64,000 bases of DNA from Candidatus Poriferisocius sp. (GTDB lineage Bacteria; Actinomycetota; Acidimicrobiia; Acidimicrobiales; Bin134), in the NCBI GenBank assembly GCA_965221865.1, contig OZ244918.1:1702816-1766815 (forward strand). The letters run 5' to 3'. Shown piece after piece: positions 7,177 through 64,000 of this stretch (the stretch's first letter is position 1; each line of letters opens with the position of its first letter). Below the pieces are notes generated by a model, which was given only the letters and a program-made list of their open reading frames with translations, had not been told where the DNA came from and made no database searches. A program made the translations under genes and the position numbers.

Positions 7177-7236
7177 TACACACCAGCCCTCAGCACAGCA
7201 TTACCGCCACGGATACACTCTTTGACCTGCATGTGA

Positions 7237-9847: not shown

Positions 9848-9867
9848 GCTCGTTTAGCCTGTATTGC
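9787..9867. repeat. 81-bp direct repeat, copy 1 (covers the real 5' end of the ImmA gene)
   Basis: Near-identical to 10611-10691, with a few mismatches clustered in the first 20 nt. Confidence 0.9.
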
Positions 9868-9883
9868 TAATACTCATTTTCTC

Positions 9884-10300
9884 TTAGTTGGGCGAAGTGG
9901 TTTGCTTGGCTCCAGGGGAAACAATTGCTACTCCATGATTGGCCGCTGCGTGTGCCATTCTAGAGTCATAGGTAACAATGCCTTGAAGTTCATGGCCGAA
10001 TTCAAGTGCTGTTGTTAAATGAATTGCGTCTAGGGAACGTAGCGAGGGCGGGTCAAGCAAACCTGCTAGTTTGAATATGCGCTCCCCTAATCGGATAAGT
10101 TGGATTGCGCCAAGTACTTCCTTAGCTAACTTAATGTGTTCAGAGGATTGTCTGTGAGCTGCTCTGAGAAGTTCTGTTTGCACAAGGTCCCCGGCTATCA
10201 AGATTCGTTCTTTTTGCGTGAGCCAAGATTTAAGTGCGTTTGTCTCTGGTTCTGCGGTGATCAGTGTCACAAGGGCAGATGTATCAATGTAAAACGGCAT
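9884..10300 (-). CDS. vapC: Type II toxin VapC (PIN domain)
   Basis: MPFYIDTSAL.., with acidic PIN residues (IDTS, QTEL, SLDAIHL, TYD). ATG at 10300 lies 1 nt after the antitoxin stop. The longer ORF-track start (10360) overlaps the antitoxin. Confidence 0.85.
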   Translation of the reverse strand: MPFYIDTSALVTLITAEPETNALKSWLTQKERILIAGDLVQTELLRAAHRQSSEHIKLAKEVLGAIQLIRLGERIFKLAGLLDPPSLRSLDAIHLTTALEFGHELQGIVTYDSRMAHAAANHGVAIVSPGAKQTTSPN

Positions 10301-10301
10301 C

Positions 10302-10574
10302 TTAGCAGCGTTCATCTTCGCGCATTTCAGCAAGTGTTTTTGACATACTCGGACCTGCAATAGGATCGGATAACTCTGCTATGCTTCTTTGAATAGGTGT
10401 TGTCAAACCGGCATCGATTAGTTCTTGTAAGCGAGACTTTGGGATTGGTGTCAACAGAGCCACTGGATGCCCGCGACTGGTTATTGTGACGATTTCACCT
10501 GCTGCTGCAGTAGCCACCACTGCTGATGCGTTTTGTTTGAGCGACCTAATGCCCACTTCAGTCATGTGCATCAT
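10302..10574 (-). CDS. Type II antitoxin, Phd/YefM family
   Basis: MTEVGIRSLKQNASAVV...GEIVTITSRGHPVALL is typical of Phd/YefM. The start is uncertain (ATG 10574/10571/10565 or TTG 10598). Confidence 0.8.
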   Translation of the reverse strand: MMHMTEVGIRSLKQNASAVVATAAAGEIVTITSRGHPVALLTPIPKSRLQELIDAGLTTPIQRSIAELSDPIAGPSMSKTLAEMREDERC

Positions 10575-10610
10575 TGTAGTACATGGCGCCTGTTGCAAAA
10601 CTAAAAAAAG

Positions 10611-10691
10611 TTAACTAAATGGCCAGAGCGCTCGCTCGCACATGCCAGCAAAGCGGGCTCAACTGTAACCTGAACTGTCACGCTCGTTTAG
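10611..10691. repeat. 81-bp direct repeat, copy 2 (orphan copy of ImmA 5' end)
   Basis: Encodes a pseudo N-terminus MTVQVTVEPALLACASERSG on the minus strand. Lies between vapB and the ABC ATPase stop. Confidence 0.9.
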
Positions 10692-10713
10692 CCTGTATTG
10701 CAAATGGTGTTTA

Positions 10714-43696: not shown

Positions 43697-43860
43697 GCCC
43701 TAAAGACTACACCCAATTGACAGACTTGCTAAAGAGCAGTGTATTTACAAATAGGGGGGGGGCAGCTCACTGTTGAGTTTTTTCTTATGATTATGGTGGT
43801 GTTGTTGGTTGGGGGTGGGGTTGTGGTATGCTTTTTGGATGCGTTTTTTCGGGTTTTTAG

Positions 43861-46800: not shown

Positions 46801-49800
46801 GGGTACCAGTTTCGTAGAGGTTCAGGTGACCCGTTTAGTTGGGGTACGCATAAAGGTGTTGCTAATAGTGATGCGTCTACTACGTCTTATGTGGTGACGT
46901 CTTTGACTAATAGCACGGAGTACAGTTTTCAGGTACGCGCTTTAATTAACAGTGTGGAAGGTGCTTGGTCTAGCACAGTTAAAGCTACTCCTACGTCTAG
47001 TTCTACTGCTCCTCCGGCTGCTCCTTCAAACGTCACCGCCACAGCTGGTGACACACAAGTAGTATTAACGTGGGCTAACCCAGGTAACGCGGCTATTACC
47101 GGCTATGAGGTGCGCCAGCGTGCCGGGTCTTCTGGTAGTTGGGGTTCGTGGGCTGCTATTGCTTCAAGCAGCGCTACTACTGTTACCCACACTGCAACCG
47201 GGTTAACTAACGGCATTGAGTATAGTTTTGAGGTGCGCGCGGTTGCGGGCACAACACAAGGCGCAGCGTCGGTGACAGTAACCGCGACGCCGATGATTGA
47301 ACCGCCTATTTTGAATCTTTTTCGGCGTCCCCCAGCTAGGTTGCCTGAAGGTACAATAACCGATACCAATTTTGATTTCAGGTTGTCCCGGGCGTTGACT
47401 TCAGATGATCCTGCTTTAGTGGATTTGGAAGTAGCAGTTTCGGGTACTGCTACGCGTAACGTTGATTATCAGTTTTTTAGTAGTGGAACGGTTGCGGGTG
47501 TGTCTGTGTTGAACACAGCCGGTACAGGTAATCTTGTGCTTCGCATTAATCGGGCGACGTTCGGTACTACCAGTCAGGCCGTGTCGGTGAAGTTGGGTAT
47601 AAGAGTTCTGCCAGACAACACGGTGGAGTCGTCTGATGAGACGATTATTCTCACACCAGCGGGTGGTAGCGCGCGTACTTTTAGTGTTTATGATGCGCCA
47701 GCGTCGGTGGAAGTCAATGTTGAACAAAGCAGGCTTCGTGCTTCAACTCTTGAGAACCGTTCTTTGCATTTAACCCTTGTTTTAGACGCTGCTACTGGTA
47801 AGGATTTAGTGTTTCCTGTTTCGTATTCTGGTACAGCAACATCAGGGTCAGATTACACACCGGTTGATAGTTTCACGGTGAAAGCTAACGGGCGGTTAAC
47901 TCATTCTTTGGTTATTCCTTATGTTGATGATGATGTTGATGAGACTAACGAAACGGTGACAGTAATGTTAGGCGACGCCCCGTCTGGTGCTACTAAAGGT
48001 AGTACAGACACTGCGACTTTCACGATTGTTGATAACGATGCGACAACAGTGACAATGAAGCTTGCGGGTAGGGCGGGTATTGAAGAAAACACTTCCACTC
48101 AGCTGACAGTGTCATTAAGCCGCGATTTGGTAACAGGTGAGGAGGTTTGGGTGCCGTTGACGGTGTCGGGTACTGGTGTCACGGCAGATGATTACACGTT
48201 TAGTTTAGCTTCAGGTACAGGGTTGAACACTGGTGTCACGTTGAACACTACCGCTCCGTACAGCGCTGCGTTACCGCAGGTTTTGATTACTGGTGGTTCC
48301 GCTGTTGAGCGGTTTGCTACTTTGACTCTCAGCGCAGCTGATGATAGTACAGCAGAGAACACAGAAACATTGTCAATTGGTTACGGTAGTGTGGAAAGTA
48401 ATCTTGACCGGTTGGATGCATCTATTTTTTCTACAGGTGGTACTACTACTGCTGGTGCCCCGGTCACAGTTCAGATCAGCGATGAAGCTACTGGACCAAC
48501 GTTGCTGTTCACCAGGACAGGAACAGGGACACGGCTTCCTGAGGGCACAACTCTTGTGGAACACAATTTTGTGTTGTCTCGTCGTTTAAATGGCACTGAT
48601 CCTCAAGTACTTGAATACGAAATCGGGTTGGGTGGCACCGCTACTCGGGGTGCTGATTACACGTTAAGGTTTGTTTCGCAAGCACGCCACTCTGATGGTG
48701 TCACCGTCATTAACACTGCTGGTAGCAGTAATCCTGTTTTGCGTATCAACAGAACAGTGTTTGGCAGCAGGTTAACCAGGGGTACTGTTGGTTTAGTTTT
48801 GAGTGTAACAGCCGATAACACTGTTGAATCAGCTGCTGAAACAATTACTTTAACAACATCAGGCGGCAGCCTGGCTTACACGATTTATGATGCGCCTGCG
48901 TCTGTTGAAGCCAAGTTCACACGAGCCGCTTACGGGTATCAAGAAGGCAATAGAGTCTTTACAGTTGTGATTCAATTAAACGAACCAACAGGCAAAGATT
49001 TAGTGTTCCCCTTATCGTACCCGCAGCCTACAACAGCGGTATCAGGGGTTGATTACACACCGGTTGATAGTTACACTGTGAAAGCTAACGGGGAGTTAAA
49101 TCACGCAATCTCATTCCTATACAATGATAATAACCTTGATGAACTAACTAAAACATTGACTGTGATGTTAGGCGCAGCACCTGATGGTGTTACTAAAGGC
49201 ACCCCAGACACCGCAACAGTGACTATCTATGATAATACTCCCACAGCAGTTACTTTAGCCGTAAACGGTTCGTCTTCAATTGAAGAAGACACTAGTACTC
49301 AGCTCACTGTGACTTTGGGTCGTGATCTAGTGGCCGGTGAGATAGTGCGGGTGCCTTTGACTGTGAGCGGTACGGGTGTGACAGCCGATGATTACACGTT
49401 GGAGTTGGCTTCGGATGCGGGTGTGAATACTGGTGTAACTTTGAACACTGCTAACCCGTATAGTGCTGCTGAACCCCAAATAGTGTTCACTGGGGGCAGT
49501 AGTGTTGAGCGGGTAGCTACTTTAGTGTTAAAAGCGGTTGCTGATAATGATGATACTGAAACTTCTGAAACTATGACTATTAGTTTCGGTTCGGTTACAA
49601 GCAACTTAGATCAAATAAACCCGTCTGTTTTCGATGGGAGTGGTACTGCTGCTGGTGAGCCGGTGGAAATACTATTAGGCGCAGCTGTTTTGACTTTGTC
49701 TGTTGATAGTGGCACTGCTAATCCCACGGAGGTGGTTGAAGGCGAGTTGTTGATGATTACTGTTACGCGTAGCCAAGCTAACCGGACTGGTGCTGATATT

Positions 49801-51861
49801 AATGTTCCGTTCCGTTTGTTGATCGATGATGTAGGTTTAGTGGGTTTAGCTGATTTCACTATTCACAATGGTGATACTACTAGTTCAGCTAGTTTGAAAG
49901 CTCCTAACGACCGGTATGATGAACCAACTAAACAAGCATGGACAGCGGAATTGAACACTGCGTTGCTACCCGAAAATCATGTTGCTGATACATCTCGGGT
50001 GGCATTTACTGTTACAGATAATGATCCGACCACGGTTACTCTCAACGGGCTTGCAGGTGATATCGCTGAGGACACGGTGAAACGATTTACAATCACCCTT
50101 AACCGCGGGTTAGTAGCCGGTGAAACCTTGCCTGTACCTTTGGTTTTTGGTGGTACTGCTACCCGCAACGCGGATTACACTACTGCTTGCCCTGATCCTT
50201 TGCCGGTGGGAATACAATGCAATAATCTTGATACCGCTGAGACGCCGACTGTAACATTCACTGGCCCTCAACAAGGTGTAACAGCCCGTTCGGTTACTTT
50301 AACAGTCACCGCCCAAGCAGACCTATACACTGAAAACGACGAAACTCTGCGCATCGCTTTAGCACCCCTAAACGCTGATTCTGGTGACGGTTTAGGCGGC
50401 GGCGCGGTTGCTGTCAACGATTTTGATGCGTTCAACATCACAGACACCACCGACCCAGCAACCGCAATACAACCACCCCCAGAAGACCCTGAAGAACCTG
50501 TTGATCCTGAACCTGAAACAGTACCAACAACGCCCATATATCAAGTACCCACCAGCCTCATAGCTGATGTGCGCGGTTACGCTGCTGAAACTCACAATGG
50601 TGCCGCGCATGTGCGCCGTTGGCAACAAGTCTTGTTAGCGTTCGGTGACACCGTTAATGGGTTCACCGGCGCTCCGATCACTCTCACCGAAGCGCGAACC
50701 TATGCGCAACAGTTCTGGAGTGTTCGCTGGGATCCGGTAGTTGAAGCACTACAACAACTCGCCAACAACCCCCAACCCCAACCCACCGCAACACCTCAAC
50801 CCACTCCAACATCCACACCAACACCATCTGTTTACACCGTGCCAGCCAGCCTCATAGCTGATGTGCGCGGTTACGCTGCTGAAACTCACAATGGTGCCGC
50901 GCACGTGCGCCGTTGGCAAAGAGTCTTGCTCGCGTTCGGTGAAGACGTGCCAGGCTTCACTGGCACCCCGATCACCCTCACTCAAGCGCGAACCTATGCG
51001 CAACAGTTCTGGGGCAGCCGCTGGGATCCTGTAGTTGAAGCATTGCAACAACTCGCCAACAACCCGCCACCCCAACCTAACGACCCGTCGCCTAACAATC
51101 CGCCGCCTAACAATCCTTCAGTTGACCCACAGCCAAAACCTGTGCTGCCCAGAATCGGTGTTACAGCACCCACCGATATCACCGAAGGCCAAACCGCCGA
51201 TTTCACATTCACCGCTGTGTCCGCCCCCGCAACCCCGCTCACTGTCACTGTCAACATAATCACAACAGGTGATTATGGCATCACCGCTGGCAGCCGCACC
51301 GTGACCATAGACACCAACGGCACCGCCACACTGTCACTAGCTACCATTGGTGACAGCGTTGACGAACCAAACGGCACTATCACCGTCACACTTACCACCA
51401 GTAACACCTATAATGTTGACTCTGCTGCTGCGACTGCGACGGTTACTATCGCAGACGACGACGCACCAGTACAAACCACAAGCACACCTATTATTTCTAT
51501 AGCCGACCAAACCATCACCGAAGGCACCTCCTGTCGTACCCCCGCCCCCTGGTCCTGCCTCAACTTATACCCTGTCACTGTCACTTTGAACCAACCCCAC
51601 CACCAAAGCGTGTGGGTCTCATTCACCATCACCCAACTCGGACAAGGAACAGGCTATGCCACCGCGAACCAAGACTTCGCCGCACGCGACCGAAGAAGCT
51701 TCATCATCGCCGCAGGCCAAACCACCAAAAACATATACGTCAACATCAAAGACGACAACACCAAAGAACCCGACGAAACCTTCCAAATCACCCTACACAA
51801 CCCCCTCCGCGGACAAATCGGCGACGGACAAGCCACCATCACCATCAAAGACAACGACTAA
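43861..51861 (+). CDS. Giant secreted Calx-beta-like/FN3 repeat protein (2666 aa as listed; likely start GTG 43972)
   Basis: Signal-peptide-like RGFVAAALAAVLFGVLFGVLAPGSVGA-QT. Contains two FN3 pairs, many Calx-beta-like modules (..DNDATTV.., VD.DVDEPN.TL.V.L), three super-repeats and two 98-aa C-terminal modules. An AAGG lies 8 nt before 43972. Confidence 0.85.
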   Translation: MVVLCVGLRVLLLLWGGGGAGLVRCLRLGGWLRKVLRVRGFVAAALAAVLFGVLFGVLAPGSVGAQTSSVVSSTGDSAVEVGEGSVAVVGFSVSPPVDSEVWLRFCFESSLADSNFSNLQTQIGNMNVSLDNNGCFDGQTVTVTVAGATTQSATIRFQPLTNTVDDLDEVVTVTVSEDPDNPLPDGVSIDAEADSVSRKIVDEDPTVVSLARSGSGAITEGGSAELTVSLGRELVAGEMVGVPLAISGTNVTTADYDLVLKEGQGLNTGVELSGVSTTEPHLSFSGAGAQTATLLLTALLNNDTGAETVTVALGPDDATANGFDRPALETNVSGGVNRSSTQNSVNVTVNDPAAPAAPRLSLAQAGDGQVYLSWANPVNSLITGYEFQRRPSGGEWGSAKGIVGSNANTITYVVTGLTNDTAYTFRVRAVSGNTDGAWSDASAAVTPTSASTARPAVPTNLAAVAGDSQVVLTWDNPGNTAITSYEVRQRTGSADWGTWAAIASSSATTVTHTVTGLTNGVTYQFQVRAATGNQDALKSLTPTDFFAEATPRPAPPTLLVSSRSALRVPEGTTTLGYNIVLSRALTADDPAVLEFEIAVSGTATRGTDYSFSSDSNLSGTGVSVVNTAGKGNPVIRIDRAAFGLTRRGSTAGLIINVNPDSDTESTDETIVLTTPGTTLTHMIYDAPASVEAKFALASSTYAEGFGPLTVVVQLSALTGRDLVFPILYPSATTTAVANVDYTPVNSFTVKANGQLTHSLVIPYVDNDVDEPNKTLSVMLGAAPSGATKATTDTMTVTIADNDATTVALAVADTTLREDTDTRLTVTLSRDLVAGEIVRVPLTVSGTGVTADDYTLELASDAGLNTGVRLNIASPFSAASPQVVFTGSSGTEQVATLVLSASYDATSEGAETLQVGFGAVTSNLAHPDRSTFTAAGTTAGAPVDVTVNNLDAPAAPTGLAATAGDTQVSLVWDDPGNNLITGYQFRRGSGDPFSWGTHKGVANSDASTTSYVVTSLTNSTEYSFQVRALINSVEGAWSSTVKATPTSSSTAPPAAPSNVTATAGDTQVVLTWANPGNAAITGYEVRQRAGSSGSWGSWAAIASSSATTVTHTATGLTNGIEYSFEVRAVAGTTQGAASVTVTATPMIEPPILNLFRRPPARLPEGTITDTNFDFRLSRALTSDDPALVDLEVAVSGTATRNVDYQFFSSGTVAGVSVLNTAGTGNLVLRINRATFGTTSQAVSVKLGIRVLPDNTVESSDETIILTPAGGSARTFSVYDAPASVEVNVEQSRLRASTLENRSLHLTLVLDAATGKDLVFPVSYSGTATSGSDYTPVDSFTVKANGRLTHSLVIPYVDDDVDETNETVTVMLGDAPSGATKGSTDTATFTIVDNDATTVTMKLAGRAGIEENTSTQLTVSLSRDLVTGEEVWVPLTVSGTGVTADDYTFSLASGTGLNTGVTLNTTAPYSAALPQVLITGGSAVERFATLTLSAADDSTAENTETLSIGYGSVESNLDRLDASIFSTGGTTTAGAPVTVQISDEATGPTLLFTRTGTGTRLPEGTTLVEHNFVLSRRLNGTDPQVLEYEIGLGGTATRGADYTLRFVSQARHSDGVTVINTAGSSNPVLRINRTVFGSRLTRGTVGLVLSVTADNTVESAAETITLTTSGGSLAYTIYDAPASVEAKFTRAAYGYQEGNRVFTVVIQLNEPTGKDLVFPLSYPQPTTAVSGVDYTPVDSYTVKANGELNHAISFLYNDNNLDELTKTLTVMLGAAPDGVTKGTPDTATVTIYDNTPTAVTLAVNGSSSIEEDTSTQLTVTLGRDLVAGEIVRVPLTVSGTGVTADDYTLELASDAGVNTGVTLNTANPYSAAEPQIVFTGGSSVERVATLVLKAVADNDDTETSETMTISFGSVTSNLDQINPSVFDGSGTAAGEPVEILLGAAVLTLSVDSGTANPTEVVEGELLMITVTRSQANRTGADINVPFRLLIDDVGLVGLADFTIHNGDTTSSASLKAPNDRYDEPTKQAWTAELNTALLPENHVADTSRVAFTVTDNDPTTVTLNGLAGDIAEDTVKRFTITLNRGLVAGETLPVPLVFGGTATRNADYTTACPDPLPVGIQCNNLDTAETPTVTFTGPQQGVTARSVTLTVTAQADLYTENDETLRIALAPLNADSGDGLGGGAVAVNDFDAFNITDTTDPATAIQPPPEDPEEPVDPEPETVPTTPIYQVPTSLIADVRGYAAETHNGAAHVRRWQQVLLAFGDTVNGFTGAPITLTEARTYAQQFWSVRWDPVVEALQQLANNPQPQPTATPQPTPTSTPTPSVYTVPASLIADVRGYAAETHNGAAHVRRWQRVLLAFGEDVPGFTGTPITLTQARTYAQQFWGSRWDPVVEALQQLANNPPPQPNDPSPNNPPPNNPSVDPQPKPVLPRIGVTAPTDITEGQTADFTFTAVSAPATPLTVTVNIITTGDYGITAGSRTVTIDTNGTATLSLATIGDSVDEPNGTITVTLTTSNTYNVDSAAATATVTIADDDAPVQTTSTPIISIADQTITEGTSCRTPAPWSCLNLYPVTVTLNQPHHQSVWVSFTITQLGQGTGYATANQDFAARDRRSFIIAAGQTTKNIYVNIKDDNTKEPDETFQITLHNPLRGQIGDGQATITIKDND
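43904..43918 (+). repeat. Homopolymeric G15 tract in the giant gene 1 leader / extreme 5' end
   Basis: Counted directly. Lies 54 nt upstream of GTG 43972, where a signal-peptide-like sequence starts. A G9 run is at 43754-43762. Confidence 0.95.
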
Positions 51862-51882
51862 CCCCGTTGGGGGTTAGTCGTT
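51853..51882. terminator. 13-bp perfect palindromic hairpin between convergent genes (bidirectional terminator candidate)
   Basis: aacgactaacccc-gttg-ggggttagtcgtt. Both stop codons (51859-61 and 51874-76) lie inside the stem. There is no U-tract. Confidence 0.5.
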
Positions 51883-52278
51883 GGGGCGTGGTAGTCCGGC
51901 GGCGGTTTCGAGGCGAGCTAGGCGGTCGGTGTGGTCGAGGAGTATCGCGTTGATTTCAGCAAATCCTGCCTGCATTTCTGTGCGTACGCTGCTGATTTCG
52001 GTGCGTAGTTCGGTGCTTAGTTCTGTGCGTACGTTGTTGATTTCGGTGCGTAGTTGAGTGTCGAGGTTGTCTATGCGGTTGCCGAGTGAGTTGATTTGTG
52101 AGATGATTATGCTTAACAGCACAGATACTAGGGTAACTAGTAGTGTGCCGACCACCGAGCTGAGGGATGGGAGCCATTTACGTGTTGTGCTTTGTGTGTC
52201 ACCGGTTTGAGATTGCGCGGTGTCGCTCATCTCGACAGTGGTTGTTTCGGTTGGCACGTTTTGTATTATAGCAGCCAT
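51874..52278 (-). CDS. Membrane-anchored coiled-coil protein, unknown function
   Basis: AGGAGG SD, one TM (VVGTLLVTLVSVLLSIIIS), and a repeated RTEINNVRTELSTELRTEISSVRTEM. Confidence 0.65.
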   Translation of the reverse strand: MAAIIQNVPTETTTVEMSDTAQSQTGDTQSTTRKWLPSLSSVVGTLLVTLVSVLLSIIISQINSLGNRIDNLDTQLRTEINNVRTELSTELRTEISSVRTEMQAGFAEINAILLDHTDRLARLETAAGLPRPND

Positions 52279-57868: not shown

Positions 57869-58741
57869 ATGGCAAAAACTGAGACTATTCGTGCTCGAGT
57901 TGAGCCAGAGCTTAAACAAAAGGCCGACAAGGCACTAGCTGAACTTGGTGTTACAGCTACCGATGCCATTACACGAATGTATGAAGAGGTTGTGTCCACA
58001 GGGGCGTTACCGTTTGCCGATGATGCAACAACCACAGCTAATCCGAATAAACAAATCGCAAACCCTAAAGAACCGGTAGAAGGGCAAACTGTTGTAGCTA
58101 CATCTCAACGCCCACCTACAGAGGCGAGTCGTTCCGAAGGTTATCACGATAAGGTTTCAGGGGAACAGCAGCGTCAAGGCACACCTAAAAACGATATACC
58201 TAAAGAAGAACTACCTACTTCTAGTTCACGGGAGGGAACGGTTTCGCTAGGCGGTTTTTCGCCTGACGCGAGGATAAAGCCTGCAACTATTTTTATTATT
58301 TTGGGGTCTTTGGCTTTTGCAGCCTTGTTTGCGGTCTTTTTGTATCTTCTTGTCGCAGAGCGTTCTCACACTCATGATGAGTACGCCGAACACACCCATG
58401 CGCATGATGAGTATGCCAGTCACACGCATGCGCATGATGAGTACGCTGAGCACACTCATGATGAGTACGCCGAACATACCCATACCCACGATGAATATGC
58501 TGAACATACCCATGTGGTGAGCCCTTATGGTTATGGCCTAAACAGCCAGCCTCAGTACCCGGTGCCTCCTGTTTATGGGACTATTCCTGCACCTGCTCCA
58601 TTTTGGCCTGCTCCAGAGCTTTATTCACAACCCAATTCTGGAGCAGAAATGTATTACTGTCCTAATGGAGAGCATTATTCATTTCAAGCATCTCCAGACT
58701 GCGTTTATAGGGGAACATATTACAATAGACCTTTTGGATAA
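57869..58741 (+). CDS. DinJ/RelB-like RHH domain fused to a TM helix and a His-rich repeat region
   Basis: N-terminus TIRARVEPELKQKADKALAELGVTATDAITRMY..V...GALPF resembles DinJ. TM is ATIFIILGSLAFAALFAVFLYLLVA. Five HTH(A)HDEYAE repeats lie at 58367-58513. Confidence 0.6.
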   Translation: MAKTETIRARVEPELKQKADKALAELGVTATDAITRMYEEVVSTGALPFADDATTTANPNKQIANPKEPVEGQTVVATSQRPPTEASRSEGYHDKVSGEQQRQGTPKNDIPKEELPTSSSREGTVSLGGFSPDARIKPATIFIILGSLAFAALFAVFLYLLVAERSHTHDEYAEHTHAHDEYASHTHAHDEYAEHTHDEYAEHTHTHDEYAEHTHVVSPYGYGLNSQPQYPVPPVYGTIPAPAPFWPAPELYSQPNSGAEMYYCPNGEHYSFQASPDCVYRGTYYNRPFG

Positions 58742-58756
58742 AGGCTAGAAAATCAG

Positions 58757-60900
58757 CGGTGGTTGGGTGGGGTTAGAGTTTTATGTAGGTGTCGGGGTTT
58801 TGGGTGTGTTTTTGCTTTGGGGAACAGATTTTTCGTGTTGTTGATAATTGGGGAACAGATTTTGTTTGTTTGTTTTTATCTGGGTTTTTAGCTTGTTTGT
58901 AAGGGTTTTCTAGTTTTTGTTGTTCCTCGTGGTTTGTTTTCCGTTATCTGTGTGTGTTGGTTGTTTGTTTTTGTAGTTTGTGGGGGTTTGGTGTTTGTTG
59001 GAGGGTAGCTGCTGGGGGTGGTGGGGTTTTGGTGGGGGTGTGGTTGGTTTTTTATTGTTTGTTGATTTTTGTATAGTATATGAATTATGAGTGGTTTGTT
59101 GTTTTGTTTGTTGAGGGGGGGTTTGTGTTTTGATTCTTTGGTGTGCGGGGGGGGGGGCTGGGTTTGTTGTTTGGGGTTGTGTGTGTGGGTTGAGGTGGGG
59201 TTGTGATGTTGGTGGGGGGTTTTTGTTTTAGGGTTGTTTGTGGTTTGGTGGTTGTGTTGGGTTTGTTTGTTTCGGGTTTGGGTGTTGGTGGTGGTGTGGT
59301 TGCGGAGGGGGGTGGTTTTGTGGGGGTGGGTGTGGGGGGTTCTGGTGTTGTTGTGGGGGTGGGTGATGTTGGTGTTGGTGGGGTTTTGGGTGTTGGGGGT
59401 GGGTCTGATTTGTTTTGGGGTTTGGATGGTTTGGAGGGTTTGGAGGGTGTTGGGGGTGGTGTTGGTGTGGTTGGGGGTCGTGTGGGTGGTGGGTTGTTGT
59501 TTGGTGGGGATGGTTTTTTGGATTTGGGTGTGGGTGTGGGTGGGGGTGGGGGTTTTGGTTTTGAGGGGTGTGGGTCTGGGGAATCTGGTGTGGTTGAGGG
59601 TGTTGTTGAGGAGCTTATGTCAGATACTGTTGTGGCGGATAGTGGGTGTGGGTGGTCTGTTGGTTTGTGGGTGAAGCGGGTTGGTGGGGTTGTTGGTGGG
59701 TCTGTGTTGTTGGGGTCTTTGGAGGGTGGGGATTCTTTGTTGTTGGAGGGTGTTGGGGGTCGTGTGGGTGTGGGGCGGTTGGGTGGTGTGGTTCGTAGTT
59801 TTGGGTTTGGTACGCCGTTGGGTGAGTGGGTTTATTTGGTGTTTGTGGGGTCGTCGGGTGGTGTGGGTTTGTTTGTGGATGGGGTGTTGGTGGGTTGGGT
59901 TGGTGGGGGTGTTGGGTTGTCTTTGGGTGTTTTGGGTGGTGGTGTTGGTGGTGTTGGGGGTGTGAGGGCTGTTTTGGATGATTTGCGGGTGTGGGGTCGT
60001 GTGTTGTCTGCGGGTGAGGTGGCGGGGGTGTTTGGGGGGTTTGAGCCGTTGTTGGTGCCTGGTGTTGTTGAGGGTTTGGTTGGGGCTGATGTTGGTGTTG
60101 GGAGTGTTGGGTTGGGGTGGTTAGCGCCTGTTGGTGGTGGTGGGGTTGAGGGGTTTGAGGTGCGTTGGCGTGAGGAGGGTTCGGGTGTGTGGTTGGGTGA
60201 GGGTGTGGTTGAGGTGTCGGCTCAGGGGAAGGGGGAAGAGGGGTATGGTTTTGTGGCCGATGGGTTGGGTGTTGGGGTGGCATATGAGTTTTGGGTGCGT
60301 GCTGTTAATGGTGTGGGTGGTGGTGGTTGGGTTTCTGTTCGGTTTGTTGCGGGTGTTTCGGGGGTGGCTGATGTTGTGAGCGGGTTGAGGGTGTCTTCTG
60401 AGCCGGGTGGGTTTAGGGTTTCGTGGGGTAGGCCTGTTGATGCGGGTGGTTTTGATGTGTCGGGGTTTGAGGTGCGTTACCGGCGTGGTGGTGGTGGTGG
60501 TTGGGTGTCTGAGTTTGTGGGTGACACAGAGCGGGGGTTGGTGGTGGATGGTTTGGTTGTTGGTGGTGCCTATGAGGTGCAGGTGCGGGTTTTGACTGGG
60601 TTTGGTGCGGGTTTGTGGGTGTCTGGGAGGGTTGTTGTGGGTCGTGAAGGTGTTCCGGGTGTTCCGGGTGGGTTGTTGGTTGATGTTGGGGCAGATGGGG
60701 TGGTGTTGTTGTGGGATGCGCCTGTTAGTGATGGTGGTGTTGGGGTTGATGGTTATGAGGTTCGGTATAGGCGGGGCGGGTTTTGGTCTGAGCCTGTTGG
60801 TTTAGAGTCTTGGGTGCGGGGTTATGAGTTTTCGGGTTTGGTGCGTGGTGTGGATCATGTGTTGTTGGTGCGGGCTATAAATGAGCGTGGGCCGGGTTCT
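58757..60900 (+). other. G+T-saturated (A/C-depleted) tract
   Basis: For example, 59281-59400 has 4 A/C in 120 nt. The tract covers 450 nt of non-coding DNA and the first 1.7 kb of giant gene 2. Confidence 0.9.
59147..59157 (+). repeat. Homopolymeric G11 tract 49 nt upstream of the giant gene 2 ATG (plus G7 at 59115-59121)
   Basis: Counted directly. Confidence 0.95.
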
Positions 60901-63900
60901 TGGGCTGGTTTAGAGGTAGGTTTTGGTGTTTCATCTAAACAAGCGTTCACGGTGCCTAGGTTGGTTGGTTGGTTGCCTGGTGATGGGGTGTTCACAGTTG
61001 TTAGGGGTTCACGTGTTGTGATTACGGGTGGTGATACAGCTAGGAGTTGGTCTGAGGATTTCATGTCCACAGTATTAGAAAACGAAGAGGTGGTAGCCGA
61101 TGTTGACAGTGTTTTAGGTGTGAATGTGTTGCAAGCACATTCACAGGTTGTGGGTGTTGCTACTGCTGCGCGTAGGGTTTTACGGGAGGTAGCAGAAAAG
61201 ATAGCTGCCGATTTGGAAGCTGTCACAGGTTTTGATGTGCCTGTGGTGGTGGTTGATGATATTCAAAGTGCGCGTGCTGGTGACATTGTGTTGGATGTAG
61301 CTGATAGTTCGGTTGAAGGGTTGGGGGTGGAAGGTTACACATTGTTTGTGGGTGATGTGGTAAGGATTGTTGGGAATACTTCTACTGGCGTGTTTTGGGG
61401 GTCGAGGTCTTTGCTGCAATTGTTAGCAGCATCTGAAACCGGTTTGGTGGTACCAGCAGGTTCGGTGCGTGATATTCCTTCAGCGGTTAGCGCTGTGAGA
61501 TCTTTGCATTTAGATAAAGCAGCCAGGTTTTACAGTCCAACACATTTACAACAGTTGATCGGGTTGTTGTCTTGGCACAAACTAAACGTGTTACACCTTG
61601 ATTTCACTTTCGCTAATGGTAGATACGATCAAGCGGTTTGGCTTTCGGATTTAGAAAACTTCGCTCGCGACCATCATGTGGCAGTAATCGTTAGCGAACC
61701 GCTTGCCGACACTACACCACCCGCAGAACAAGCAGACAGGCTAGTTGCTGAAAGTTTTGTTAGCAGCGGTGTGGTTGGGAGTGTTGTTGGTGACGGTGAT
61801 GCAGGGTTAGTTGAGAGCACAGTCACACAAGACCGTCAACAATTAGCTAACACTGTGTCTGGTGTGAGCGCGGATCGTTGGGTGAGGGGACACCGTTTTG
61901 TTTTAGGACGTCAACTTGTGTTACCTGATTTAGCGGCTATTCACAGTCTGGCTAGCAAACTGAATGGGCCCGGTGAGGTGGGTGCTGGACTGTTCGTGGG
62001 CGGCCCGTTAGCTTTAGCAGCCACCGACGGGTTCATCAACTATCATTTAGGTTCGTCTTTAGCAGTGCTCGGTGACCGGTTATGGAACGAGCAGGCATCT
62101 AACTGGACAGTCGACGAGTTCCTAACAGCTAAAAACATTATCGGTTCACCGCTCACAACAAAAACCGTTCACAACTCTGAACAACATCGCGGGCTCATAC
62201 ACCACTGGAGTTTCAACAATGTGAAATATTATCAAACCTCTGAAAACACAGCAGATAAGACAAGCTATTTACTAATACCCGATCATACGGGCAGAGCTGA
62301 CGGATATGCGATCGGTGACCCACAAAAATTTCCTCGGCTAAACGCTGACAGCCGTCTTTTAGGTCAAAGCATAGAATTCGGGCACAGCGAACAAGTCCTA
62401 AACCAAGACGGCATAGAACTAGGCGCCACAGACTTACCAGTACCATGGACCCTGTCAGCGTGGGTGAAACGAACCGGCAACCATCCCGGAGCGACACTAC
62501 TAAACTCAATTAACGGGGCGATACGCCTACAACAACACAACAAACCCGTAATAGGCCTCCTAGACCGCACAAACACACCATACACATACCACAACTTTGA
62601 CTACACCCTGCCACTAAACAAATGGGTACACCTAACACTCATCGCCACCCAACAAGGCACAGTACTATACGCTGATAGCCGTCTTGTCGGCTCAGTGCCC
62701 AAGTCGATTTCGTTGCCGCTACAACAAATCGGGTTTGAAAACCTCATCGGCCTAAAAGCCAAAATAGATGATATCAAAATATGGGGGCAACCACTTGTTT
62801 CTGCTGTCAACCAAGTTATATCCACCCCAACAACACCCATTGATCAACCCATAGTGCCCGAGCTGGTTGCTACACCACCATTAGAACCCGGTTTAGTAGC
62901 AGTGTCGCTGGATGTGAACAACTCGGGCACAGTCACAGAGGGTGGCACGTTGACGGTCACTGCGACATTAGCGGCAGCGGCCGCAGCGAACGTTACGATT
63001 CCAGTGCGCGTTGCCTCCGGTGGCACAGCAGGAGCTGGTGATTACACACTTTCTGCTTCGGGGAACATTACTATTAGCAGCGGTTCCACATCAGGCACTT
63101 TGACGTTTAATGCTACCGATGACAGTATTGATGAAAACAATGAGACGCTAACATTAGAGTTCGGTACGCTACCTGCCGGTTATCGTGCTGGCAGCCCGTC
63201 AAGTGTGAACATCACCATAACAGACAACGACACAGCGGGTGTGACCATCACCGAGACCGGTGACAGCACATCGGTAGCAGAAAACGCTGGTACTGACACT
63301 TACACCGTCGTGTTAGACACCCAGCCAACCCATGATGTGTCGGTGGCGGTCACATCAACAGGGCCTGTGGCGTTTGATGGACCAGATGATGCGACCGCGT
63401 ACACCACAAGTGAAACATTAACGTTCACACCAACTAACTGGGCGACAGCGCAGACGATCACAGTGCAAGGCCAAAACGATGATGTGGACAACACTGGCGG
63501 GTCGCGTAGCGCGACACTCTCTCATGATGTGTCGTCCAGCGACACGGCTTATAACGCTATAGCTGACCAAGATGTCACCGTAACGGTGACCGATGATGAT
63601 GCGACGCCTGAGATTGATTTAAGTGTGAACCCGGCAACGGTGGCAGAAGATGCTGGCGCGACCACGGTGACAGTTACCGCCACGGTTGATGACGCGACCA
63701 TCAGATTTGACGCGGCGAAAACGGTAGCAGTGTCGGTTACAGGGTCGGGTGAGGCTAACCGGGTCGGGTTCACAGCGGTCAACAACTTCAACATTACTAT
63801 CGCTGCTGGCCAACCGTCGGGGAGTAACACGTTCACGCTCACACCAGATGATGACAGCACTGATGAGACCGACGAGACAATCACCATATCGGGCACTTCA

Positions 63901-64000
63901 ACTGGGCTAACCATCAACCCGGCGACGTTGACCCTCACCGACGATGATGCTCTTGCACTTGTTAGCATGCCTGTCACGTTGGGGGTCAACAACTCGGGCA
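59206..64000 (+). CDS. Giant surface protein 2 (partial, continues past the window)
   Basis: Domain order is TM/signal, LamG, 3x FN3, GH20-like, LamG, Calx-beta-like repeats. Frame 1 is open from the stop at 59191-59193 to the window end, checked by hand translation of several segments. It is absent from the ORF track because no stop is reached. Recognisable landmarks include W.VGLWVKR...LFVDG...DDLRVWGR.LSAGEV (LamG_3), FRVSWGRPVDAGGFDVSGFEVRYR (FN3), EGYTLFV...GVFWGSRSLLQLL...D.P....R.LHLD.AR.FYS...L..LI.LLS.HKLNVLHLDF (GH20-like), and ..TITDNDTAGV.. (Calx-beta-like). Confidence 0.85.
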   Translation, partial: MLVGGFCFRVVCGLVVVLGLFVSGLGVGGGVVAEGGGFVGVGVGGSGVVVGVGDVGVGGVLGVGGGSDLFWGLDGLEGLEGVGGGVGVVGGRVGGGLLFGGDGFLDLGVGVGGGGGFGFEGCGSGESGVVEGVVEELMSDTVVADSGCGWSVGLWVKRVGGVVGGSVLLGSLEGGDSLLLEGVGGRVGVGRLGGVVRSFGFGTPLGEWVYLVFVGSSGGVGLFVDGVLVGWVGGGVGLSLGVLGGGVGGVGGVRAVLDDLRVWGRVLSAGEVAGVFGGFEPLLVPGVVEGLVGADVGVGSVGLGWLAPVGGGGVEGFEVRWREEGSGVWLGEGVVEVSAQGKGEEGYGFVADGLGVGVAYEFWVRAVNGVGGGGWVSVRFVAGVSGVADVVSGLRVSSEPGGFRVSWGRPVDAGGFDVSGFEVRYRRGGGGGWVSEFVGDTERGLVVDGLVVGGAYEVQVRVLTGFGAGLWVSGRVVVGREGVPGVPGGLLVDVGADGVVLLWDAPVSDGGVGVDGYEVRYRRGGFWSEPVGLESWVRGYEFSGLVRGVDHVLLVRAINERGPGSWAGLEVGFGVSSKQAFTVPRLVGWLPGDGVFTVVRGSRVVITGGDTARSWSEDFMSTVLENEEVVADVDSVLGVNVLQAHSQVVGVATAARRVLREVAEKIAADLEAVTGFDVPVVVVDDIQSARAGDIVLDVADSSVEGLGVEGYTLFVGDVVRIVGNTSTGVFWGSRSLLQLLAASETGLVVPAGSVRDIPSAVSAVRSLHLDKAARFYSPTHLQQLIGLLSWHKLNVLHLDFTFANGRYDQAVWLSDLENFARDHHVAVIVSEPLADTTPPAEQADRLVAESFVSSGVVGSVVGDGDAGLVESTVTQDRQQLANTVSGVSADRWVRGHRFVLGRQLVLPDLAAIHSLASKLNGPGEVGAGLFVGGPLALAATDGFINYHLGSSLAVLGDRLWNEQASNWTVDEFLTAKNIIGSPLTTKTVHNSEQHRGLIHHWSFNNVKYYQTSENTADKTSYLLIPDHTGRADGYAIGDPQKFPRLNADSRLLGQSIEFGHSEQVLNQDGIELGATDLPVPWTLSAWVKRTGNHPGATLLNSINGAIRLQQHNKPVIGLLDRTNTPYTYHNFDYTLPLNKWVHLTLIATQQGTVLYADSRLVGSVPKSISLPLQQIGFENLIGLKAKIDDIKIWGQPLVSAVNQVISTPTTPIDQPIVPELVATPPLEPGLVAVSLDVNNSGTVTEGGTLTVTATLAAAAAANVTIPVRVASGGTAGAGDYTLSASGNITISSGSTSGTLTFNATDDSIDENNETLTLEFGTLPAGYRAGSPSSVNITITDNDTAGVTITETGDSTSVAENAGTDTYTVVLDTQPTHDVSVAVTSTGPVAFDGPDDATAYTTSETLTFTPTNWATAQTITVQGQNDDVDNTGGSRSATLSHDVSSSDTAYNAIADQDVTVTVTDDDATPEIDLSVNPATVAEDAGATTVTVTATVDDATIRFDAAKTVAVSVTGSGEANRVGFTAVNNFNITIAAGQPSGSNTFTLTPDDDSTDETDETITISGTSTGLTINPATLTLTDDDALALVSMPVTLGVNNSG

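Follow-up and report, generated by a model that had tools for sequence, protein, structure and literature searches.

A conserved G/T-rich leader at the 5′ end of giant exported-protein genes in sponge-associated Acidimicrobiia

The stretch of DNA analyzed here (64,000 nt, hereafter the window) carries two giant genes on its + strand, each of which begins within a tract strongly enriched in G and T. Giant gene 1 (43861 to 51861) encodes a protein of 2666 aa. Giant gene 2 (59206 to 64000) runs off the window; its open reading frame begins at an ATG at 59206 or a GTG at 59203, lies downstream of an in-frame stop codon at 59191, and stays open to the window end. The orthologues of giant gene 2 in two close strains encode 11,004 aa (L013) and 12,573 aa (L014), and the gene itself contains fn3, GH20b/GH20, Laminin_G_3, and Calx-beta domains.

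The G/T tract of giant gene 2, delimited by a maximal-segment scan, occupies positions 58758 to 60931 of the + strand (2174 nt; A 146, C 126, G 1047, T 855). The + strand is 87.5% G+T across this segment, as it is across 58757 to 60900, the limits given in an earlier reading of the sequence alone. The 5′ edge of the tract lies 16 nt past the stop codon of an upstream RelB-like gene. All counts of the sequence-only reading were reproduced: the 120 nt from 59281 to 59400 hold 2 A and 2 C (P ∼4e-27 given the window background G+T of 0.53), and 37 of the 40 codons from 60409 to 60528 end in G or T. In 200-nt windows, the (G+T−A−C)/N skew peaks at 0.93 in the tract, compared to a background mean of 0.055 (standard deviation, 0.15). 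By codon position, G+T over 59206 to 60930 is 0.89, 0.76, and 0.97, and the G/T fraction of third positions (GT3) reaches 100% over the first 100 codons of the gene. Third-position GC-skew is +0.9 to +1.0 in the tract, and TA-skew drops in step with it, so that the asymmetry sets amino bases (A, C) against keto bases (G, T). Because the skew is greatest at synonymous sites and spans noncoding DNA, it acts on the nucleic acid and not on the protein.

The coding part of the tract (59206 to 60931; GT3 of 0.97) encodes an N-terminal hydrophobic segment, a Gly/Val-rich linker, one Laminin_G_3 domain, and three FN3 domains. The Laminin_G_3 domain (LamG1; 59650 to 60024, 37.7 bits) and the FN3 domains (60094 to 60330, 60397 to 60615, and 60664 to 60903; Pfam fn3, 37.0, 31.2, and 32.2 bits) score above their Pfam gathering cutoffs, so that the earlier description of a tract crossing noncoding upstream DNA, a LamG-like domain, and three FN3-like domains is borne out by both composition and domain searches. 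A second, A/C-rich Laminin_G_3 domain of the same gene is a paralogue of LamG1, the domain written in G/T (28% identity, E = 3e-21). With a three-sequence alignment, AlphaFold2 modeled the FN3 part as beta-sandwiches (mean pLDDT of 10-residue blocks roughly 65 to 93), with low confidence for the LamG part of the tract. Amino acid identity to the orthologue P0001 is 62% in the tract and 51% downstream. The encoded protein is Gly/Val-rich, and its LamG and FN3 folds are built mostly from Gly, Val, Leu, Phe, and Trp. The domain matches, the LamG paralogy, and the structural model thus support the earlier observation that the remaining A and C occupy amino acid-defining positions and that the domains are still recognizable.

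The tract had been described as fading at about 60.9 kb into ordinary composition. The fade is real; the plain return is not. GT3 falls gradually from 60932 to 61900 (0.89, 0.71, 0.65, and 0.54 per 100 codons), overshoots to 0.24 to 0.27 in an A/C-rich stretch at codons 1051 to 1200 (62356 to 62805; A3 0.40, C3 0.35) that coincides with the second Laminin_G_3 domain, and returns to ∼0.5. The low G+T of the overshoot is also present in L014. Double-strand-break resection, which predicts a skew peak beside the sign change, was rejected, as the skew in fact peaks at the extreme 5′ end.

Upstream of the start codon, the G/T-rich leader is noncoding (58758 to 59205), beginning 16 nt past the upstream stop codon, with G+T of 0.81 to 0.94 per 100 nt. 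It is kept in L013 and L014, where indels preserve the G/T composition, and G↔T accounts for 11 of the 24 differences in the leader aligned to L014. The leader holds a G7 homopolymer (59115 to 59121) and a G11 homopolymer (59147 to 59157) ∼50 nt 5′ of the start codon. The length of the G11 run differs between near-identical strains; one G fewer in L001 (G10) is the sole difference across 700 nt of tract, and the orthologue in L002 has a long G run (∼G15) at the equivalent position. Since the run lies upstream of the open reading frame and its in-frame stop, any effect would be exerted via the promoter or leader.

A second G/T tract (43771 to 44053, + strand, 86.6% G+T) lies over DNA upstream of giant gene 1 and over the 5′ end of the gene itself; GT3 in this gene stays at ∼0.7 for ∼4.5 kb and then descends to 0.29 at the 3′ end. 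This gene, too, has homopolymers at its start: a G9 run upstream (43754 to 43762), which is G8 in L013, and a G15 run in the 5′ coding region (43904 to 43918), which encodes poly-Gly ahead of the signal peptide and is G18 in L013, a change that stays in frame. The skew is not general, in agreement with the local character first claimed for it: among the 43 open reading frames of the window, only the two giant genes have a GT3 of at least 0.9 in their first 100 codons, all others ranging from 0.19 to 0.64, and the short exported proteins of the window lack a G/T gradient.

The amino-to-keto axis is exactly that of deamination chemistry, and the sequence-only reading had accordingly proposed deamination filtered by purifying selection. 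In its chronic form, strand-specific mutation is a serious rival explanation, which we consider possible though doubtful: the non-template strand would be single-stranded for long periods and its A and C deaminated or lost. This could happen in R-loops on giant genes that are poorly translated or membrane-anchored (transertion, hyper-negatively supercoiled), with uracil and hypoxanthine excision and abasic-site bypass yielding C→T/G and A→G/T; G-richness would favor more R-loops, so that the state would be self-reinforcing. The sharp 5′ onset and downstream decay of the tract fit such a process, as does the confinement of G clusters and G4 motifs to the non-template strand. Further support comes from IS30-like remnants in the window, in which the arms of the inverted repeat differ at 12 positions, all of them A/G or C/T with the same direction, indicating that a mutational process of this polarity is present here; in a direct repeat pair, G stands against A in 11/24 differences. 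These remnants went unrecognized in a Pfam search and gave weak tblastn matches to plasmid IS30 transposases (30 to 37% identity, E down to 3e-5). On the other side, rpoB, rpoC, EF-G, and EF-Tu, which are assumed to be highly expressed, show no effect and thus no scaling with expression (GT3 of 0.56 to 0.62, near that of other + strand genes), and the window open reading frames scanned contain no deaminase gene.

Related giant genes were compared, leaving out L007 to L009 as too distant or too short. All that were examined show the same gradient, starting at the 5′ end of the gene. In total, the G/T start was seen in syntenic orthologues and paralogous giant FN3 genes from at least five other sponge-associated Acidimicrobiia genomes with GC contents of 50 to 65%. 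These include the syntenic orthologues in L002 to L004 (54% GC), the close strains L013 and L014, a homologue in the 64%-GC genome L005, and a homologue in L006 on a short contig. Orthologues at ∼66% nucleotide identity and the L005 homologue have the tract at the same place. The Ca. Poriferisocius positional orthologue of giant gene 1 and its paralogues descend from a GT3 of 0.90 to 0.39, and three tandem paralogues form a G+T sawtooth (0.73 to 0.48, 0.80 to 0.48, and 0.74 to 0.52) with a reset at the start of every gene. In one Ca. Poriferisocius genome, there are at least 11 paralogous giant FN3 genes (73 to 84% identity), some in tandem, and poly-G runs of ∼15 and 14 to 18 nt lie upstream of the Poriferisocius paralogues. 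Thus, the G/T tract is a conserved "keto leader" anchored at the 5′ end of giant exported FN3/LamG/Calx-beta genes with poly-G runs in sponge-associated Acidimicrobiia; the depletion of sense-strand A and C begins just 5′ of the start codon, at the expected location of a promoter, decays over 2 to 5 kb, and resets with each gene.

An ordinary cause, whether an assembly or consensus artifact, tandem-repeat low complexity, protein-level selection for Gly and Val, or recently acquired foreign DNA, is very improbable. It could draw on the L001 assembly, which stops inside the tract, and on the Gly/Val-rich protein. However, the tract is present in four independent assemblies of the source or close strains (including L001, L013, and L014), and independent assemblies from different samples and methods are mutually consistent. 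Third positions and noncoding DNA are the most extreme, and both synteny and tract are conserved across genomes of 50 to 65% GC. Tandem Repeats Finder (TRF) returned no array over the tract, only short stretches (scores of 30 to 90, 59 to 100% matches) in a region that encodes LamG and FN3 domains. A repeat search of the whole window located no second copy of the tract; its matches were internal, short, and of low identity. A fungal RIP-like process, which would act on duplicated DNA with C→T on both strands, was therefore rejected, given also that the tract is changed on one strand exclusively and in A as well as C. A diversity-generating retroelement target, which would pair a template with a variable repeat differing at adenines near a reverse transcriptase gene, was likewise rejected: no repeat pair covers the tract, the depletion affects C as strongly as A, and the window open reading frames scanned yielded no RT domain.

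The composition of the tract varies with that of the genome, GT3 being 0.97 at 50% GC, 0.84 at 54%, and 0.79 to 0.86 at 64 to 65%. This tendency toward stronger tracts in lower-GC genomes speaks for mutation. So do the four-fold degenerate sites of the window tract (G 0.401/T 0.578), which fit what a pure A→G and C→T mapping of the neighboring genes yields (0.411/0.590), and the replacement of C mostly by T in the 64 to 65% GC relatives (G/T ratio of 1.4 to 1.5, compared to 3.9 to 4.1 in neighbors). The T excess of these high-GC relatives is, however, common to the 3′ end of the same genes and is therefore not decisive for a C→T flux. The A fraction of four-fold sites falls from 0.19 to 0.013 in the 50%-GC genomes; an account based on Rho alone (G against C) was ruled out because TA skew follows GC skew in these genomes.

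Substitutions between strains bear on whether the tract is a burst or a stable state. The close relatives compared are 1.4% and 6% diverged. At four-fold sites compared to L014, A/C↔G/T changes number 2/323 in the tract and 41/318 in the rest of giant gene 2 (p = 2e-11), a contrast that loses power should the tract evolve at the slow rate of its housekeeping neighbors and not at that of the remaining gene (4.9 expected, 2 observed, P = 0.13). Transitions account for 2 changes in the tract versus 21 in the rest (p = 2e-5) and keto↔amino transversions for 0 versus 20. G↔T changes number 22 in the tract and 12 in the rest, an apparent excess that slippage indels in two-letter sequence may have inflated (90 gap columns). 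A raised deamination rate predicts more A/C↔G/T turnover at neutral sites than elsewhere in the same genes, and less was observed, which argues against hypermutation. Nor do recent branches show a net polarized change: on the window and L013 branches, polarized with a 94%-identical outgroup, the coding tract has four A/C→G/T and six G/T→A/C changes. Near-identical strains show no excess divergence in the tract. Distant orthologues show as many transversions as transitions, with third-position G↔T dominant, but this comparison is saturated at synonymous sites and no mutation spectrum can be obtained from it.

The Poriferisocius paralogues extend the comparison. Synonymous difference is 15.8% in their 5′ part and 27.8% in their 3′ part. 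At pyrimidine sites, the C/T difference is 12.5%, compared to the 28.6% expected under an elevated C→T rate (P = 1e-23). Fitting a two-state model to the 5′ part gave C→T ×1.5 and T→C ×0.21, which is the shape expected of fixation bias with a scaled S of ∼2. It is thus shown in part that the tract is an old, stably kept state at long-standing equilibrium rather than a fresh burst. The proposal of sharply bounded, near-saturating hypermutation does not hold, since the tract is old, its place is shared among orthologues, and its turnover is low; with the composition shared and polarized changes balanced, which is a refuting condition named in the sequence-only reading itself, the hypermutation reading fails and the compositional oddity stands. 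What survives of the deamination proposal is the amino-to-keto axis and the filtering by selection on the protein.

A shortage of A/C-creating substitutions, rather than an excess of A/C-removing ones, is also what asymmetric protection or repair would produce. Mutations of the template strand (sense G→A and T→C) would be suppressed near the promoter, for example, by transcription-coupled repair or shielding in an RNA:DNA hybrid, and ordinary sense-strand damage would then slowly win. Only G/T, G/G, and T/T mismatches are substrates of actinobacterial NucS/EndoMS (PMC6159521), and repair in the phylum is thus keyed to keto bases. Nevertheless, the Poriferisocius paralogues show no lowering of sense G→A in their 5′ part (0.12 per G site, compared to 0.06), and the restriction to giant genes is unexplained, so that we regard this explanation as most unlikely. 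NucS specificity alone was also rejected, as working through the mismatch routes yielded, on reasoning, no strand bias.

We consider selection on the transcript or DNA a more likely cause than strand-specific mutation. Under this reading, to which we give a little less than an even chance, a fixation bias arising from selection on the nucleic acid keeps the sense strand of the leader clear of A and C. As the comparisons above show in part, substitutions that create a sense-strand A or C are rarely fixed and G↔T swaps are fixed freely, while A and C defining essential LamG and FN3 residues are kept by purifying selection. An mRNA 5′ region of G and U only could form no Watson-Crick helices; for each 100 nt of RNA, folding energies are predicted at −6 to −8 kcal/mol in the core of the tract and at ∼−32 in the neighbors. 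Rho requires C-rich, G-poor RNA. A G/U leader would lack the cytidines that Rho (C-rich rut sites) and actinobacterial RNase E (RN|CNU) require, and might shield the initiation-proximal, longest-lived part of a 33- to 38-kb transcript. Mycobacterial RNase E cuts single-stranded RNA 5′ of cytidine (PMC10641625). Alternatively, the same selection could act on DNA, through R-loops or G4 structures, the G-rich non-template strand carrying all G4 motifs of the window (8/8 clusters, all on the + strand within the two G/T tracts). That the gradient is conserved, 5′-anchored, specific to giant genes, low in turnover, balanced in its changes, and low in folding counts for selection. Against it, a GT3 near 1.0 needs a scaled S of ∼3.5 to 5, which is above ordinary codon bias and enough to turn much of the protein to Gly and Val. 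Avoidance of RNase E or Rho accounts for the loss of C but not, alone, for that of A; protection would be limited to the first 2 to 5 kb of a >30-kb mRNA; and the IS30-like remnants, which are nonfunctional, bear similar G/T and A/C tracts.

More tentatively, the two-letter leader may be an evolved nucleic acid device for mRNAs of more than 30 kb, being structure-free and unseen by C-dependent RNase E and Rho and/or programming R-loop and G4 formation. Folded LamG and FN3 domains would then have to draw on a vocabulary of almost only eight codons. Maintenance of the leader by a dedicated mutator, targeted to these genes and acting on one strand, would be just as novel. If selection keeps the leaders, they point to a design rule for extremely long bacterial transcripts; if mutation does, they represent the strongest local strand-specific mutation bias known from a bacterial chromosome and are a natural analogue of switch regions. 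In both cases, LamG and FN3 folds whose third positions are 97% G/T amount to a natural experiment on protein sequence space. The leaders also pose a practical problem for assembly, binning, gene calling, and the detection of horizontal transfer from composition.

A different DNA-level function, in which the G4-dense, poly-G non-template strand would be selected as a recombination or phase-variation module of variable surface proteins, is unlikely. Such a module would parallel pilin variation in Neisseria, which is G4-dependent, and GT-rich sequences are preferred RecA pairing substrates. Consistent with such a module, the G4 motifs of the window occur only in the tracts, poly-G lengths differ between close strains at both giant genes, and the paralogous giant FN3 genes are numerous. 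High-divergence patches within the giant genes (38 substitutions in 44501 to 45000 of giant gene 1) suggest recombination, and four-fold divergence in giant gene 2 is 7× that of its neighbors. Yet synonymous sites are better conserved in the tract than elsewhere in the gene, amino acid identity to the distant orthologue is higher there as well, and a few G4 motifs would do, leaving a 2-kb depletion of A and C at every synonymous site unaccounted for.

The keto leader was compared with known systems of strand asymmetry; a literature search for such tracts found no published description. Immunoglobulin class-switch regions have a G-rich non-template strand with G clusters, as R-loop-prone regions do, and the tract has both properties. 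Human CpG-island GC-skew/R-loop regions are similarly G-rich on the non-template strand just past the promoter, extend for one to several kilobases with G clusters, and are conserved by gene (PMC3787257). Both of these systems, however, involve G against C only, with modest skews, whereas the tract has lost A and C, is protein-coding, and is bacterial, and R-loops here are putative. Transcription-associated asymmetry, an excess of C→T and A→G on the non-transcribed strand, shares with the tract the sense-strand G+T excess, the direction relative to transcription, and the proposed deamination chemistry (PMC2031905), but known skews amount to a few percent, increase with expression, and extend over the entire gene, whereas the leader is near-total, 5′-graded, and restricted to giant exported genes. 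AID-type somatic hypermutation starts near the promoter and decays over ∼2 kb, with C→T and C→G expected after uracil excision; the 5′ onset and downstream decay of the tract would fit such targeting in shape, although the sigma-70 scan around the leader found no promoter. In contrast to the hypervariable targets of AID, the tract is near-identical between close strains and low in neutral turnover. On the vertebrate mitochondrial heavy strand, one-strand A→G and C→T changes are graded by position and shift amino acid composition (PMC3269014, PMC2779903); that gradient follows single-stranded time during replication of the whole replicon, whereas the gradient here is set per gene and reset in a tandem array.

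Among bacterial genes, giant repeat-rich ones were reported in the SeqWord analysis (Reva and Tummler) to show atypical oligonucleotide usage with high or moderate strand pattern skew (PMC2528017), but that skew is a coarse whole-gene statistic, and neither a two-letter 5′ leader nor a 5′-to-3′ gradient was described. A survey of giant genes (10.1101/2023.11.21.568195) also describes no two-letter 5′ leader with a gradient. The leaders resemble phase-variable contingency loci in that these surface-protein genes bear G7 to G18 runs of strain-variable length in promoter, leader, or 5′ coding sequence; the three runs noted above vary between close strains (G11/G10, G9/G8, and G15/G18). Contingency loci are not known with kilobase-scale two-letter composition, and ON/OFF switching of the giant genes is inferred. 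The leaders would mark a class of putatively phase-variable giant surface proteins, likely relevant to sponge-symbiont interaction.

Two smaller elements interrupt the G/T composition of the noncoding leader. A −10-like hexamer, TATAGT (59072 to 59077), lies inside the only A-rich island of the leader and also occurs 3′ of the poly-G run upstream of Ca. Poriferisocius paralogues. Since a scan for sigma-70 promoters and terminators returned neither at 58600 to 59400, the hexamer is a lead and not a promoter call. Farther upstream, two copies of GGGGAACAGATTTT form A/C-containing islands at 58819 to 58864 (TRF 31-nt period, 1.9 copies); this pair, recognized by reading the sequence, is mostly retained in L013 and L014 and is a candidate regulatory repeat.

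The tract occupies positions 58758 to 60931 of the + strand (2174 nt) and is 87.5% G+T (A 146, C 126, G 1047, T 855), with A and C depleted equally. The value of (G+T−A−C)/N in 200-nt windows peaks at 0.93 within it, against a background mean of 0.055 (sd 0.15), and two counts made from the sequence alone proved exact: 4 A/C in 59281 to 59400, and 37/40 codons ending in G or T in 60409 to 60528. The onset lies 16 nt past the stop codon of a RelB-like gene (57869 to 58741). A 448-nt noncoding leader is followed by the initial 575 codons of giant gene 2, whose open reading frame starts at ATG 59206 (or GTG 59203), is preceded by an in-frame stop at 59191, and stays open through the window end. 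G+T in the coding tract is 0.89, 0.76, and 0.97 at codon positions 1, 2, and 3, respectively. The G/T share at third positions (GT3) in successive 100-codon bins of the gene is 1.00, 0.98, 1.00, 0.95, 0.94, 0.89, 0.71, 0.65, 0.54, 0.46, 0.32, 0.27, 0.46, 0.49, and 0.54; therefore, the tract has no end at 60.9 kb. The sequence-only reading had it fade there into ordinary composition; what follows is instead a decay, an A/C-rich overshoot, and then parity. The overshoot lies over the second LamG domain (third-position A 0.40, C 0.35). GC skew and TA skew move in parallel throughout the third positions of the gene, which bears out the amino/keto axis proposed earlier. A tandem array was ruled out as the identity of the tract by a tandem-repeat search.

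The translated tract contains one Laminin_G_3 domain and fn3 domains in three copies, each scoring over its Pfam gathering threshold, in agreement with what had been read from the bare sequence. AlphaFold2 predicts beta-sandwiches for the FN3 part (10-residue block mean pLDDT roughly 65 to 93). The two LamG domains of giant gene 2 are paralogues of each other (28% identity, E = 3e-21); the coding sequence of one consists of G/T, and that of the other ranges from ordinary to A/C-rich. Orthologues of the gene in the close-strain contigs L013 and L014 have 11,004 and 12,573 codons, respectively. Giant gene 1 (43861 to 51861, + strand) encodes 2666 aa with fn3 and Calx-beta domains.

The window, from a 2.93-Mb contig, carries nusG, rpoB, rpoC, EF-G, EF-Tu, and tRNA genes, and its relatives are labeled as sponge-metagenome sequences and with the genus name Candidatus Poriferisocius. 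Its RpoB groups with proteins from MAGs designated Acidimicrobiia bacterium. The tract is present in the independent assemblies L001 (99.5% identical to the window overall, the sole tract difference being one G in a poly-G run), L013 (98.65%), and L014 (93.6 to 95.4%, from a 2.75-Mb genome). GT3 over the first 100 codons is ≥0.9 in 2 of the 43 window ORFs, both of them giant genes, and 0.19 to 0.64 in the remainder. The 5′ tract of giant gene 1 spans 43771 to 44053 (86.6% G+T), past which GT3 is ∼0.7 for 4.5 kb and then falls to 0.29 at the 3′ end. A weaker gradient (G+T 0.65 to 0.93 per 100 nt) occupies the same place in the syntenic orthologues L002 to L004 (GC 54%; a distant orthologous protein, P0001, is 50% identical) and in the homologue L006 (GC 53%, short contig), and the gradient is also present in L005, a more distant homologue on a 64.5%-GC contig.

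Giant gene 1 has a positional orthologue in Ca. Poriferisocius, in a complete genome of 3.04 Mb; this orthologue lies between RDD-family, ArsC, and amidohydrolase genes on its 5′ side and CN_hydrolase, aminotransferase, amidohydrolase, and aldehyde dehydrogenase genes on its 3′ side. Its GT3 is 0.90 at first and declines within 5.3 kb to 0.39, with a sharp onset ∼100 nt 5′ of the start codon and neighbors at ∼0.5. Among the proteins returned, 11 are paralogues (73 to 84% identity) encoded on that one 3.04-Mb contig. In three tandem paralogues, G+T forms a sawtooth (0.73 to 0.48, 0.80 to 0.48, and 0.74 to 0.52), jumping back up wherever a new gene begins. Given its recurrence in orthologues and paralogues, together with the 2/43 ORFs, the G/T leader is therefore tied to the transcription unit of one gene class, that of giant, exported, repeat-domain proteins. 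This state has persisted while genome GC shifted between 50% and 65%. The Ca. Poriferisocius giant FN3 family (P0004 to P0017) comprises at least 11 proteins of about 1,720 to 1,780 aa, some encoded head-to-tail, with giant FN3 arrays at ERZ25068685 ctg6961, 1603740 to 1618938. Their amino acid identity is lower in the 5′ part (72 to 76%) than in the 3′ part (83 to 84%), despite lower 5′ synonymous divergence.

The composition had first been attributed to a burst of hypermutation filtered by selection on the protein. The filtering was upheld. Amino acid identity to the distant orthologue is 62% inside the tract and 51% outside. The window and L002 share about 66% nucleotide identity, and third-position G↔T changes dominate their differences in the tract (70 + 66). 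At sites with G/T in the window and A/C in L002, transitions (79 + 61) barely exceed transversions (55 + 35), and G↔T differences at sites that are G/T in both are the same inside (28.8%) and outside (31.4%) the tract. These sites are saturated and establish no more than that the state is old and was retained in both lineages.

The window, L013, and L014 allow a closer comparison, with L014 as the outgroup for polarizing. Between the window plus L013 and L014, 115/1678 coding-tract sites differ, 45% of them by G↔T; in the flanking housekeeping genes 70/6119 sites differ, with 77% transitions and 4% G↔T. The window and L013 branches carry 4 A/C→G/T and 6 G/T→A/C changes in the coding tract, and net conversion is therefore absent on these two recent branches. 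At four-fold sites, window versus L014, the tract (323 sites) shows 2 transitions, 0 transversions between G/T (K) and A/C (M), and 22 G↔T or A↔C changes, compared with 21, 20, and 12, respectively, in the rest of giant gene 2 (318 sites; transitions, p = 2e-5; all K↔M changes together, p = 2e-11) and 20, 1, and 2 in five housekeeping genes (989 sites). A raised A/C→G/T rate at equilibrium predicts near-ceiling turnover, ∼9.7 sites on the rest-of-gene clock against 2 observed (P = 0.004); if the tract follows the slower clock of the housekeeping genes, 4.9 sites are predicted, and the contrast with 2 is not decisive (P = 0.13). A burst is thus contradicted by the scarce K↔M turnover, the balanced polarized changes, and the age of the state in orthologues; alignments to orthologues gave the same composition without net polarized conversion. 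Outside the tract, four-fold divergence of giant gene 2 from L014 (59206 to 63600) is 7× that of flanking housekeeping genes (53/318 versus 23/989) and transversion-rich (21 transitions/32 transversions versus 20/3). This could stem from old allelic lineages or recombination, from misalignment of repeats, or from mutation of another kind.

The Ca. Poriferisocius paralogues offer an unsaturated comparison, in which the synonymous difference is 15.8% over the first 800 codons (5′ part) and 27.8% over the last 590 (3′ part). The 5′ C/T difference at pyrimidine sites is 12.5%; a model that raises C→T and leaves T→C at its 3′ rate predicts 28.6% (P = 1e-23). Relative to the 3′ part, a two-state fit assigns the 5′ part C→T ×1.5 and T→C ×0.21; G→C is rarer in the 5′ part (0.03 versus 0.20 per G site), and C→G shows no clear difference. 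The signature is a scarcity of C-creating substitutions with no excess of C-destroying ones. Fixation bias would yield such a shape, with a modeled scaled S of ∼2 in Ca. Poriferisocius and ∼3.5 to 5 in the window genome. Our best, tentative explanation is a conserved G/T-only leader of giant, putatively phase-variable surface-protein genes, maintained in a selection-like manner.

Chronic non-template-strand damage on giant exported genes, through R-loops, uncoupled translation, or transertion-driven supercoiling, ranks second to such maintenance and is a serious, if less likely, rival. The anomaly does lie exactly along the amino/keto axis, and the tract four-fold shares (G 0.401, T 0.578) match what the neighbors would give if every A became G and every C became T (0.411, 0.590). 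Two ∼96% identical copies of a decayed IS30-like element (137 to 976 and 2636 to 3615), matched weakly to IS30 transposases by tblastn (30 to 37% identity, E down to 3e-5), also have G/T-rich 5′ parts and 88 to 89% A/C 3′ parts. Copy B has 86-nt inverted repeats (2549 to 2634 and 3614 to 3699) whose arms differ by 12/12 one-polarity transitions (6 C/T, 6 A/G; two-sided P = 5e-4); a process of the same polarity therefore acted on apparently dead DNA here. DNA-level function, repair asymmetry, and ordinary causes split what weight is left. A direct repeat nearby (130 to 225 versus 956 to 1051) differs chiefly by G versus A.

Returning to a maintained leader, predicted sense-RNA folding is −6 to −8 kcal/mol per 100 nt in the tract core versus about −32 in the neighbors, and the A/C-only antisense RNA has zero predicted folding. 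All eight canonical G4 motif clusters in the 64-kb window are on the + strand within the two tracts. Rho requires RNA rich in C and poor in G, and almost no C is left in the tract. In mycobacteria, RNase E cleaves single-stranded RNA on the 5′ side of cytidine, at RN↓CNU (PMC10641625). Transcription of an mRNA of 33 to 38 kb would last many minutes and leave the 5′ end as its oldest and most exposed part, which would give a rationale for a protected leader and a 5′-to-3′ gradient. Avoidance of RNase E and Rho by itself leaves the A loss in 50%-GC genomes unaccounted for; that loss would be explained solely if absence of Watson-Crick pairing were also selected. From composition, then, we infer a protective function.

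All giant genes examined carry poly-G runs (G7 to G18), placed in the leader or near the 5′ end of the coding region. On the + strand, G7 (59115 to 59121) and G11 (59147 to 59157) lie in the giant gene 2 leader, G9 (43754 to 43762) at the giant gene 1 5′ end, and G15 (43904 to 43918) in its 5′ coding region. The G11 run is G10 in L001, and the G9 and G15 runs are G8 and G18 in L013. Since run lengths differ between near-identical genomes, the runs look like phase-variable contingency loci, with putative switching. L002 has a long run (about G15) at the matching place. The Ca. Poriferisocius paralogues have TTGCGG, a ∼15-G run, and then TGTGTGGTTATAGT, and a further G14 to G18 run encodes poly-Gly ahead of the signal peptide. 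In the paralogue locus, L012, poly-G runs lie at about 4840 to 4950 and 10290 to 10390. One run is flanked by TTGCGG and TATAGT hexamers. The three 15-kb assemblies L002, L003, and L004 differ solely at 9942, 9966, and 9992, all G/T changes ≤50 nt past the long run (about G15), either genuine leader G↔T polymorphism or poly-G-context sequencing errors.

The closest analogues are human promoter-proximal GC-skew/R-loop regions and immunoglobulin switch regions (PMC3787257), transcription-associated strand asymmetry (PMC2031905), AID hypermutation, and the mitochondrial heavy-strand gradient (PMC3269014). Each resembles the tract in direction, position, or chemistry, but the tract lacks features that define several of them: it is neither hypervariable nor correlated with expression, is graded per gene, not per replicon, and involves A and C alike. 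Skewed oligonucleotide usage is already known in giant genes (PMC2528017); no prior account of two-letter 5′ leaders was found in the literature searched, including a recent giant-gene survey. We rate the tract a new, extreme form of promoter-anchored strand asymmetry.

Several neighboring features were also observed. Two patches of giant gene 1 diverge amid near-identical kilobases, 51385 to 51751 versus L001 (43 differences, 6 single-base indels) and 44501 to 45000 versus L013 (38 substitutions). Both could have arisen by mosaic recombination or by gene conversion among the repeat modules; the former could also be sequencing error, the contig having 2× coverage. The stop codon of giant gene 1 lies within a perfect hairpin, ACGACTAACCCC/GGGGTTAGTCGT. 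Directly after this gene, a small convergent gene (51874 to 52278, − strand) encodes 134 aa with a membrane anchor and LRTEI-type coiled-coil repeats; its sense strand is strongly A/C-rich (GT3 0.19), the opposite of the leaders. A/C-rich coding patches in downstream LamG and Calx-beta modules (window 62356 to 62805; L006 3800 to 4526, 75 to 83% A+C) and the giant gene 1 3′ end (50400 to 51861; third-position C 0.47, G 0.10) mirror the 5′ G/T tracts; such C-rich, G-poor patches would resemble a Rho loading site. The RelB-like gene adjoining the tract, kept in position in all relatives, encodes a RelB antitoxin domain and then His/Asp/Glu/Tyr-rich repeats (HDEYAEHTH-like, 24- to 30-nt period). 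A defense or toxin-antitoxin-like cluster (5869 to 10705) encodes an AAA_16 ATPase, DUF4143, DUF4411 with an IrrE-like M78 peptidase, and a PIN domain, and contains an 85-nt direct repeat (94%) at 9787 to 9871 and 10621 to 10705.
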